This document shows, in pieces, positions 1 through 1,891 of a stretch of DNA of 26,965 nucleotides (the first letter of the stretch is position 1; every line of letters starts with the position of its first letter). The stretch spans positions 1 to 26,965 of the forward strand of contig JACQPZ010000059.1 of the NCBI GenBank assembly GCA_016207265.1, in the 5' to 3' direction. Source of the stretch: Candidatus Latescibacterota bacterium. GTDB taxonomy: Bacteria > Eisenbacteria > RBG-16-71-46 > SZUA-252. The position numbers and the translations under genes were made by a program. The notes under the pieces were generated by a model that saw only the letters and a program-made list of their open reading frames with translations, did not search any database and was not told the origin of the DNA.

Positions 1-869
1 CCCGGCAGCGGCCTCGGGTCGGTATCCGAGGCCAGCGTGATCGTATCGCCGACCTTGGCATCGGAAACAACCTTCACGTTCGCGATCACGTAGCCGACGT
101 CTCCCGCCCAGAGCTCCTCGCGCGGCTCGAGGCCCAGGCGGAGCACCCCGACCTCGAGGGCGTCATAGCTCTTGCCCGTGGAGAGAAACCGCACGGACTC
201 GCCTGCCCGGATCACGCCGCGCACCACGCGCACGTAGACGATGACGCCGCGGAACTGGTCGAACACGGAATCGAAGATGAGCGCCTGGAGCGACTCGTCG
301 CTCATGTCCTTGGGCGGAGGCACCCGCGCGATGACGGCCTCGAGAAGGTCGTCGATGCCGCGCCCCTCCTTGGCCGAGACGCGGAGCACGTCCTCGGGCT
401 CGACGTGGAGGAGCTGGGCGACCTCGAGCGACACGTCGTCGGTGCGCGCCGCCGGAAGATCGATCTTGTTCAGCACCGGAACGATCGCGAGGTGCTGATC
501 CTGCGCGAGAAAGAGGTTCGACAGGGTCTGCGCCTCGATCCCCTGCGAGGCGTCCACCACGAGGATGGCTCCCTCGCACGCGGCGAGGCTGCGGGAGACC
601 TCGTACGTGAAGTCCACGTGACCGGGGGTGTCGATGAGGTTGAGCTGGTAGGTCCTCCCGTCGCGCGCGCGGTACTCCATGGCGATGGCGTGGGACTTGA
701 TCGTGATGCCCCGCTCCCGCTCGAGATCCATGTTGTCCAGCACCTGCTCCATCATCTTGCCGCGGGGGACGGCGCCCGTGATCTCGAGCAGGCGGTCGGC
801 GAGCGTGGACTTTCCATGGTCGATGTGCGCGATGATGCAAAAGTTCCGGACGAGGGATCGCGGGATCAT
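1..869 (-). CDS. lepA: Elongation factor 4 (LepA), N-terminal G domain; gene runs off the window start
   Basis: Translated by hand, as it is absent from the ORF track (no stop in the window): MIPRSLVRNFCIIAHIDHGKSTLADRLLE...DLERERGITIK...YQLNLIDTPGHVDFTYEVSRSLAACEGAILVVDASQGIEAQT...VLNKIDLP, the LepA signature motifs. ATG at 869-867. Confidence 0.97.
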   Translation of the reverse strand, partial: MIPRSLVRNFCIIAHIDHGKSTLADRLLEITGAVPRGKMMEQVLDNMDLERERGITIKSHAIAMEYRARDGRTYQLNLIDTPGHVDFTYEVSRSLAACEGAILVVDASQGIEAQTLSNLFLAQDQHLAIVPVLNKIDLPAARTDDVSLEVAQLLHVEPEDVLRVSAKEGRGIDDLLEAVIARVPPPKDMSDESLQALIFDSVFDQFRGVIVYVRVVRGVIRAGESVRFLSTGKSYDALEVGVLRLGLEPREELWAGDVGYVIANVKVVSDAKVGDTITLASDTDPRPLP

Positions 870-885
870 GGGATCATGGGATCAT
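854..885 (-). repeat. 8-bp tandem repeat (ATGATCCC)x3 plus degenerate GCGATCCC, spanning the lepA start; an extra copy lies at 903-910
   Basis: Plus strand reads gggatcgc gggatcat gggatcat gggatcat (854-885) and gggatcat (903-910). Confidence 0.95.
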
Positions 886-920
886 GGGCGGCCGATCAGA
901 GCGGGATCATGGTCGACGGG

Positions 921-1550
921 TCAGAATCGGGCCCGGACGGCGAGCGTGAGCCTCGGTTCCCCCTCGCCGGGCGCGGCCGCGTCGGGCGGGCCGAAGTCCG
1001 CCTCGAAGGTCGCGAGATGCGCGTCCACGTACGCGTCGATCATGTTCAGCATGTGAGCCGCCACGCCCCACCAGATCCAGTTGACCTTGCGGTTCAAGTG
1101 CACGTTCCGGTCATTCTCCGCGGCGAGGACCGCGGGGTCGAGATCCGGATACGGATCCCCGCGATCGATGGCCGCCTGGTACGCCTCATCGTGCCGATCC
1201 AAGGCGTCCTTCTCCTTCTCGAACTCGCTCCACGCCTTGTACGCAAGGAACCCCTCGCCGGCCACGACGGCCAGCGACTTCACGTACTTGCGATTCGCGG
1301 CTTGCCCCCAGCCGGGGATCGCGGCGGAGCGAAGCATCACGCTGAACGGACGCGGCCCGTGCGGGATTGAGTCCGGCCGGGAACCCCCGATCGCGCCCAC
1401 GGGCGGACCGTCCGCGGACGGACCACCGACGAAGGAAACGCCCGCGGCGGCCGATTGGGACGCGAGGAGCAAACAGGCCACGAATGCGACCGCGCTACTC
1501 TTTCGTGAAGAAATGGGCGATCGCCAGGAACAGAAGAAGCACCCCGCCAA
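921..1550 (-). CDS. DUF5683-like membrane/exported protein (start uncertain: TTG 1550 or GTG 1481)
   Basis: Motif SAAIPGWGQAANRKYVK...RxxxxW...NMIDAYVDAHL resembles DUF5683; signal-peptide-like N-terminus (VACLLLASQSAAA). Confidence 0.7.
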   Translation of the reverse strand: MAGCFFCSWRSPISSRKSSAVAFVACLLLASQSAAAGVSFVGGPSADGPPVGAIGGSRPDSIPHGPRPFSVMLRSAAIPGWGQAANRKYVKSLAVVAGEGFLAYKAWSEFEKEKDALDRHDEAYQAAIDRGDPYPDLDPAVLAAENDRNVHLNRKVNWIWWGVAAHMLNMIDAYVDAHLATFEADFGPPDAAAPGEGEPRLTLAVRARF

Positions 1551-1770
1551 ATCCGTACACTCCGATCACGACGCCCCGCGTGAACTCAGGGCCGAGGGTA
1601 GAGTTCTGCAGCAGGTATTCGAGCCCCTGCCCGAGCGCGATGATCAGGGCCAAAAGGAGCACGAAGGACCATTTCCGGACGAGCGCCACGATCGCGATCG
1701 TGACGACGATCACGATGACGCGGGGATCGTTCCAATTCAGCGTAACGAGGGAGTTCCACAATTCTTCCAT
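1495..1770 (-). CDS. Small hypothetical membrane protein, about 3 TM helices, 91 aa
   Basis: Strong SD (GGAGGT) ahead of the ATG; three hydrophobic segments; sits between tRNA-Sec and the DUF5683-like gene. Confidence 0.8.
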   Translation of the reverse strand: MEELWNSLVTLNWNDPRVIVIVVTIAIVALVRKWSFVLLLALIIALGQGLEYLLQNSTLGPEFTRGVVIGVYGFGGVLLLFLAIAHFFTKE

Positions 1771-1793: not shown

Positions 1794-1891
1794 TGGCGGG
1801 AACGTGTGGGAATCGAACCCACCTCGGACGTTTCTAGCGCCCGACATAAGGATTTGAAGTCCTCGGAGTCCACCAGAACCCATCCGTCCCC
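1794..1891 (-). tRNA. selC: tRNA-Sec (anticodon UCA), 98 nt with encoded CCA
   Basis: GGGGACGG-AU-GGGUUC UGGU GGACUC (6-bp D stem, 4-nt loop)-C-GAGGA CUUCAAA UCCUU, long variable arm UCGGGCG/CGUCCGA, then GUGGG UUCGAUU CCCAC-ACGUUCCC-GCCA. These are hallmark tRNA-Sec features. Confidence 0.97.

Follow-up and report, generated by a model that had tools for sequence, protein, structure and literature searches.

The stretch of DNA analyzed here (the window) is a complete contig of 26,965 nt (JACQPZ010000059.1, our contig C15) from a metagenome-assembled genome (MAG) of a Candidatus Latescibacterota bacterium, assigned by GTDB to the Eisenbacteria (GCA_016207265.1, referred to as G000). The MAG is fragmented: it is 82% complete and comprises 1.45 Mb in 227 contigs, with a GC content of 68%. 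Close to the first position of the window, on the minus strand, a gene of the DUF5683 family is followed by lepA, which encodes elongation factor 4 (EF-4). The two genes are separated by a chain of three very short open reading frames (mini-ORFs), in which consecutive stops and starts are +10, +10, −4 and −4 nt apart and the total gap from the DUF5683 stop to the lepA ATG is 51 nt. These frames lie within two nested tandem repeats, of 8 and 25 bp (Table 1). We consider it probable that the array is a young, lineage-specific scar of tandem duplication, tolerated because ribosomes continue to reinitiate into a lepA gene that has no Shine-Dalgarno (SD) sequence.

Table 1. Features at the DUF5683/lepA junction, in window coordinates (TRF, Tandem Repeats Finder)
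Feature	Positions	Strand	Evidence
DUF5683-family gene upstream of lepA	921..1481	-	Pfam PF18935, E 7e-16; stop TGA 923-921
Spacer A, 10 nt, C-rich, without SD; ancestral stop-to-start spacer	911..920	-	Alignment A1: aligned with the 7-10 nt spacers of genus relatives
Mini-ORF 1, MIPL*, ATG ATC CCG CTC TGA	896..910	-	ATG at the lepA start position of relatives; retained in the X2 contig
Spacer B, 10 nt, second spacer copy; 6/10 positions identical to spacer A	886..895	-	Sequence; TRF period-25 repeat
Mini-ORF 2, MIP*, ATG ATC CCA TGA	874..885	-	TGA shared with the next ATG as ATGA (877-874)
Mini-ORF 3, MIP*, ATG ATC CCA TGA	866..877	-	TGA shared with the lepA ATG as ATGA (869-866)
lepA (EF-4), N-terminal 289 codons, truncated by the contig start	3..869	-	Pfam GTP_EFTU, E 4e-57, and GTP_EFTU_D2
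8-bp tandem array: ATGATCCC x3 and a degenerate fourth copy, GCGATCCC	854..888		TRF period 8, 4.4 copies
25-bp unit TCTGA-N10-ATGATCCCGC, present twice	876..925		TRF 878-925: period 25, 1.9 copies, 82% matches

Reading the minus strand, we found every mini-ORF, stop, spacer and the lepA start where a first-pass annotation, made from the letters alone, had placed them, and TRF detected both of the nested repeats that it had described. Its further observation that lepA lacks an SD sequence was also borne out: GGAG, GAGG and AGGA are all absent from the 20 nt upstream of each of the four ATGs (those of the three mini-ORFs and of lepA). Since all units precede the last ATG, a change in repeat number leaves the lepA frame intact, as had been noted. 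The ATG at 869 is the sole possible start of lepA; an in-frame TGA lies at 884-882, and no second start codon intervenes ahead of the conserved RNFCIIAHIDHGKST. Mini-ORF 1 closes with TCTGA, a duplicate of the end of the DUF5683 gene. The degenerate 8-bp copy, GCGATCCC, falls within lepA codons 3-5, indicating that the ancestral sequence already contained a near-repeat favoring slippage. The array is a rarity in its genome. The unit ATGATCCC occurs six times in the window compared with 1.08 expected, and four of the six occurrences are at the lepA start; the two others are single units, at about chance level. The two-unit 16-mer is found at only one place in the 1.45 Mb, and G000 as a whole holds just 10 perfect tandem repeats with at least three copies.

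The array is absent from the organism's closest relatives. We located lepA in 40 relatives, inspected and aligned the upstream DNA (alignment A1), and measured the spacing from the conserved Phe-stop. Each of the genus's 12 other species (Candidatus Eisenbacteria; 11 measured and one, G009, read directly) has a single lepA start located 7-10 nt past the DUF5683 stop, with a mode of 10 nt, consisting of one ATG/GTG-ATY-CCN-CG motif, and none of the 12 carries mini-ORFs or repeats at this position. The DUF5683 gene lies directly upstream of lepA in all the family genomes examined, and across the family's three other genera 11 of 12 genomes have a spacer of 4-10 nt, the exception being G024 (35 nt). 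This spacing is preserved across genus and family while the C-rich spacer sequence diverges, and the relatives' upstream regions, too, contain no SD-like motif at lepA. In alignment A1, the lepA starts of 11 genus relatives stand opposite ATG 910 of the window, and direct reading of G009 revealed the same arrangement. ATG 910 is thus the positional counterpart of the relatives' lepA start, now stranded as MIPL*, and the window differs from the relatives by an insertion of 41 nt (25 + 16). Pattern scans of Joint Genome Institute (JGI) metagenomes and of 185,579 species genomes (one genome per species) recovered no other lepA start with at least two ATGATCCC units. Judged as conserved upstream ORFs, by position, frame or peptide, the mini-ORFs have counterparts in 0/12 genus relatives, and one other family genome has an unrelated duplication of 14 bp.

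We then compared the locus between samples, using the groundwater metagenome runs in which it is represented as Logan contigs and considering positions 500-1400. In run X2 (SRR12113385), one contig of 1511 nt (depth 11) spans positions 783-1400 and lacks exactly 16 nt at 862. It differs further by two substitutions, one of them synonymous (CTC to CTG at 852), and represents a slightly different strain with a one-copy allele: it carries one copy of ATGATCCC compared with three in the MAG, while the 25-bp duplication is intact, with no indel or mismatch over MIPL*. The same contig was also recovered through the 91-aa protein encoded next to the DUF5683 gene, and its gene call places lepA 35 nt past the DUF5683 stop (35 = 51 − 16). 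In run X3, the alignment of the contig ends exactly at 878 and leaves 21 letters unaligned, a break that would fit a one-copy allele. Run X1 has no contig over 872-964, but 86% of this run was read, and the gap therefore proves nothing. The 25-bp duplication is present in both the MAG and X2 and therefore in no fewer than two populations. The 8-bp array seems to differ between populations, with three copies versus one (a single bridging contig).

The geometry of the chain follows from simple arithmetic. Let d be the distance from the first base of a stop to the first base of the following start; when a segment of period p covering both is duplicated, the stranded start meets the copied stop in frame if and only if p = d (mod 3). 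For an ATGA-type start, d = −1 and the period must be 2 mod 3, which the 8-bp unit obeys; where a 10-nt spacer separates stop and start, d = 13 and the period must be 1 mod 3, which the 25-bp unit obeys. Each added 8-bp unit automatically produces a further Met-Ile-Pro frame, and the TGA of this frame overlaps the ATG that follows. Under this rule, the relay of mini-ORFs needs no explanation beyond the duplications themselves.

Similar duplications were found at other gene starts. We scanned G000, with no bias toward any period, for perfect tandem repeats containing the 5′-most start of a long ORF with high GC content at third codon positions (GC3). Only two start-covering repeats emerged, one at lepA and the other at the trpE/trpG junction. 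In the latter, the ATGA overlap between the trpE stop and the trpG start is duplicated in a perfect 35-bp repeat (contig C195, 2751-2821, minus strand; L113:2751-2821). Its period, 35, is 2 mod 3, and the duplication creates a 12-codon frame in which the trpG start is fused to a copy of the trpE tail, with ATGA at both ends. As at lepA, the relatives are plain: the junction is a single NTGA, with no duplication, in 11/11 genus relatives that have the gene. A scan of 110 lepA loci yielded two further start duplications. In G024, a member of the same family from another Eisenbacteria genus, a perfect 14-bp duplication of the lepA start (L022:1472-1500, also L034) has a period of 2 mod 3 and generates the five-codon frame MKLCP*, whose TGA overlaps the real lepA ATG. 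The second, in a Melioribacteraceae MAG (L087, approximately 1503-1516), is a 7-bp duplication, ATGGAAT ATGGAAT. Overall, all four Eisenbacteria duplications (8, 25, 35 and 14 bp) obey the rule, and in each the extra frame ends at or before the true start.

SD-like sequences peak 9-13 nt upstream of starts genome-wide in G000, and lepA is without one; the 3′ end of the 16S rRNA, which holds the anti-SD, was not found in the MAG. No sigma-70-like promoter was detected within positions 800-2000, including inside and after the DUF5683 gene. Taken with the conserved spacing of 7-10 nt, the lack of an SD sequence and of a promoter suggests that lepA shares a transcript with the DUF5683 gene and probably depends for its translation on ribosomes coming off that gene. 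Coupling works best at distances of −4 to +3 nt, and by about +40 nt its efficiency has fallen 3- to 10-fold (PMC12548453); in E. coli 80-100% of reinitiation is lost at +38 nt (Huber et al., PMC10666635). With so steep a loss over distance, a bare gap of 51 nt would be costly. Short ORFs can deliver ribosomes, and mycobacterial interspersed repetitive units (MIRUs) insert at gene starts with little harm by way of −4 coupling (PMC12548453).

We accordingly propose the following history. In the lineage of this species, the 25-bp unit (TCTGA, the 10-nt spacer and ATGATCCCGC) would have been duplicated, leaving the old lepA start stranded as the four-codon MIPL*, which ends on the copied DUF5683 stop. 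Replication slippage may later have amplified ATGATCCC, aided by the pre-existing near-repeat ATGATCCC GCGATCCC, to give the three copies of the MAG assembly and the one copy of the other sample. Ribosomes leaving the DUF5683 gene would then be handed to lepA across the mini-ORFs that bridge the gap. The mini-ORFs may be what makes the duplication tolerable, either because the geometry happened to preserve coupling or because duplications were filtered to do so. Each additional step likely costs some efficiency, such that the net effect would probably be neutral or a modestly lower synthesis of LepA. E. coli without lepA grows normally (PMC4245954), which makes it plausible that modest changes in LepA level are tolerated.

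Some observations weigh against this interpretation. The extra ATG of L087 is read out of frame for a few codons into lepA before reaching a TAG, and it breaks the frame rule. Support for the rule comes from four events, a small sample in which full agreement has a chance expectation of about 1% if frames are equally likely. The MAG assembly is so far the sole source of the three-copy allele, and reports of coupling efficiency at about +10 nt in E. coli are inconsistent (PMC12548453). Finally, when the two 25-bp copies are compared in the one-copy form, 4/10 spacer positions differ as against 0/15 positions in TCTGA and ATGATCCCGC (Fisher p ~0.017). Divergence confined to the spacer may mean that the relay came under purifying selection once lepA depended on it, or that one complex mutation altered the spacer, and is too slight to build on; a constraint on the relay could make the array more than a neutral scar.

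The explanation that competes best shares the duplication origin and dispenses with the relay: lepA would be initiated de novo, independently of an SD sequence, and the upstream ATGs would be decoys, each extra copy of which would lower LepA output by drawing off initiating ribosomes and not by loss at hand-over. Bacteria of the Fibrobacterota-Chlorobiota-Bacteroidota (FCB) group often initiate without an SD sequence, and none is present at any ATG here. The predicted accessibility of the start region is alike for one to five copies, and the steep fall of reinitiation with distance (Huber et al., PMC10666635) would also favor an independent start. On the other hand, a spacing of 7-10 nt held across genus and family without sequence conservation suggests that lepA relies on the upstream stop. 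The DUF5683 gene and the sequence after it contain no promoter-like site, and in none of the four Eisenbacteria duplications does the extra frame run past the true start. We regard the decoy explanation as rather unlikely.

Another concern is that the three-copy array was created by assembly or co-assembly, the real organism having one ATGATCCC, such that only the MIPL* frame of the 25-bp duplication is real. The sole bridging contig from another assembly indeed has one copy, the X3 alignment ends at 878 as one copy predicts, X1 has no contig across the array, and the MAG is broken into 227 contigs with lepA split over two of them. However, common assemblers use final k-mer lengths exceeding 27 nt, and the perfect array is 27 nt long; extra copies arising from cycles in the assembly graph are thus not expected. 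X2 moreover represents a slightly different strain, as its synonymous change at 852 attests, and a real allele difference is simpler; the X1 gap carries no weight given the 86% of the run that was read. G000 contains 116 short perfect tandem repeats per Mb, compared with 140-150 in the relatives' loci and 55 after shuffling, and this density, no higher than in relatives, indicates that the assembly is not artefact-prone. An artefact is, in our estimate, unlikely.

The apparent variation in copy number raises the option that the start-codon microsatellite serves as a heritable and reversible rheostat, in which slippage alters the number of three-codon hand-over steps and selection keeps the relay motifs. 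If this were true, populations would differ in LepA (EF-4) dosage with no risk of a frameshift, a translational analogue of phase variation through promoter spacers. We hold this to be a speculative and improbable extension.

The first-pass annotation had gone further in proposing that an evolved termination-reinitiation ladder, or a leader tunable by copy number, sets EF-4 levels, possibly through autoregulation by LepA. Part of this proposal stands: copy number apparently differs, with three copies in the MAG versus one in X2, and hand-over at ATGA overlaps agrees with known termination-reinitiation (PMC6728339, PMC10666635, PMC12548453). The start and stop motifs of the mini-ORFs are perfectly kept while the spacer has diverged, and LepA does affect initiation in E. 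coli (PMC4245954). The regulatory role itself did not survive the comparison. Aligning the relatives' lepA upstream regions, as the annotation had suggested, showed the mini-ORFs to be missing from 12/12 genus species, an outcome it had itself counted against the idea; 11/12 other family genomes have no start-region duplication, and no match was found in the JGI metagenomes or the 185,579 species genomes. The array is hence not a conserved regulatory device, and its absence from relatives speaks equally against a tunable leader. A like structure occurs at the unrelated trpE/trpG junction of G000 and is thus not specific to lepA, and autoregulation by LepA is unsupported. The array could be linked to no Rfam family, terminator or alternative fold. 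An evolved ladder is accordingly most doubtful.

Candidate regulatory elements in the region were examined and rejected. Positions 850-930 have no Rfam match, arguing against a known RNA element. The repeat and its immediate surroundings contain no predicted terminator; just two terminator-like matches were obtained, both far upstream, inside the DUF5683 gene region. Predicted folding undergoes no meaningful change for one to five copies, with a start accessibility of 0.36-0.46, and copy-number-dependent folding was rejected. A contingency (phase-variation) locus or a switch operated by Dam methylation of GATC, suggested by the six GATC sites within 53 bp (856-908) and by the apparently variable repeat number, can practically be set aside, as the gain or loss of units, which all precede the last ATG, leaves the lepA frame unaffected, no promoter flanks the array to be re-spaced, and GATC is common throughout G000 (17,295 sites versus about 4,257 expected from base composition, a 4-fold over-representation), several other loci of which hold six sites in less than 60 bp. 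The Dam-family methylase PF02086 was not found in G000, an 82% complete MAG.

Among known systems, one of the closest to the array is coupling through NTGA overlaps and short spacers (Huber 2019, PMC6728339; Huber 2023, PMC10666635; Brown and Wade 2025, PMC12548453). The lepA chain contains ATGA overlaps leading from 885 to 877 to 869 together with +10 spacers, the downstream gene has no SD sequence of its own, and short ORFs have been proposed as deliverers of ribosomes. The structural hallmarks of this class are present, with −4 overlaps at 877-874 and 869-866 and +10 spacers at 920-911 and 895-886, as is a conserved tight junction (7-10 nt in the 12 genus genomes and 4-10 nt in 11/12 family genomes). 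Unlike in the described cases, the frames here are products of recent duplication, three to four codons long, rather than genes, and three or four successive hand-overs would be needed.

A second likeness is to MIRUs and their variable-number tandem repeats (MIRU-VNTR; PMC12548453), which are likewise tandem units located within operons at gene starts, with small frames coupled at −4; their copy number is variable, and their expansion does little harm to downstream expression, as we suppose for lepA. The lepA array has tandem −4-coupled units at a gene start and may vary between strains in the MIRU-VNTR manner (three copies in the MAG versus one in X2, from a single bridging contig), but it shows no dispersal across the genome. 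MIRUs are much longer units, of tens of bp. They are scattered over many loci as presumably mobile elements, whereas the lepA unit is unique in its genome, measures 8 bp (or 25 bp), derives from the gene's own start and occurs in Eisenbacteria, not mycobacteria. Minigenes (of the lambda bar type, with 2-3 codons, and in the axe-txe operon; PMC8708949, PMC2490762) likewise consist of a tiny Met-X(-X)-stop frame and can influence nearby translation; the classical ones have their own SD sequence, which the mini-ORFs at lepA lack, and exert their effect through peptidyl-tRNA drop-off and the sequestration of tRNA. The features that define an SD-driven minigene, a leader switch structure or a phase-variable locus are all lacking here. 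The array belongs to the known coupling/MIRU-like kind and is distinctive only in its very short unit, its +10 spacer geometry and its phylum.

Turning to the surrounding genes, the remainder of lepA is located on another contig (G000:C197:9253-10395), where residues 220-600 are encoded with no stop codons, and this continuation indicates that the gene is intact. The halves on the two contigs overlap by approximately 70 codons (residues 220-289); strain variation probably broke the assembly at this point. The DUF5683 ORF stays open as far as TTG 1550, and a 186-aa gene call on a Logan contig agrees with GTG 1481. A hydrophobic ORF of 91 aa (1498-1770, minus strand) with no Pfam match is likewise called as a gene on a Logan contig of independent origin. 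It overlaps the long version that begins at TTG 1550, and GTG 1481 is therefore the probable start, giving a protein of 186 aa. Further upstream, a tRNA-Sec (1798-1891, minus strand; Rfam RF01852, 69.5 bits) adjoins a selD-like AIRS gene (1902-2891). Exact-protein look-ups returned no match for SelD or for the DUF5683 protein (queried as the TTG-start version including the stop codon).

As regards LepA biology, the array tells nothing specific. Its practical lesson is that repeated start motifs can mislead the annotation of start codons. It also constitutes a natural experiment on coupling, in which the stop-to-start gap of an SD-less gene grew from 10 to 51 nt and was filled by a chain of frames of three to four codons. 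Together, lepA, trpE/trpG and the G024 case support a general rule, namely that duplications of gene junctions survive when the extra frames end at or before the real start, and this rule argues that such genes depend on reinitiating ribosomes.

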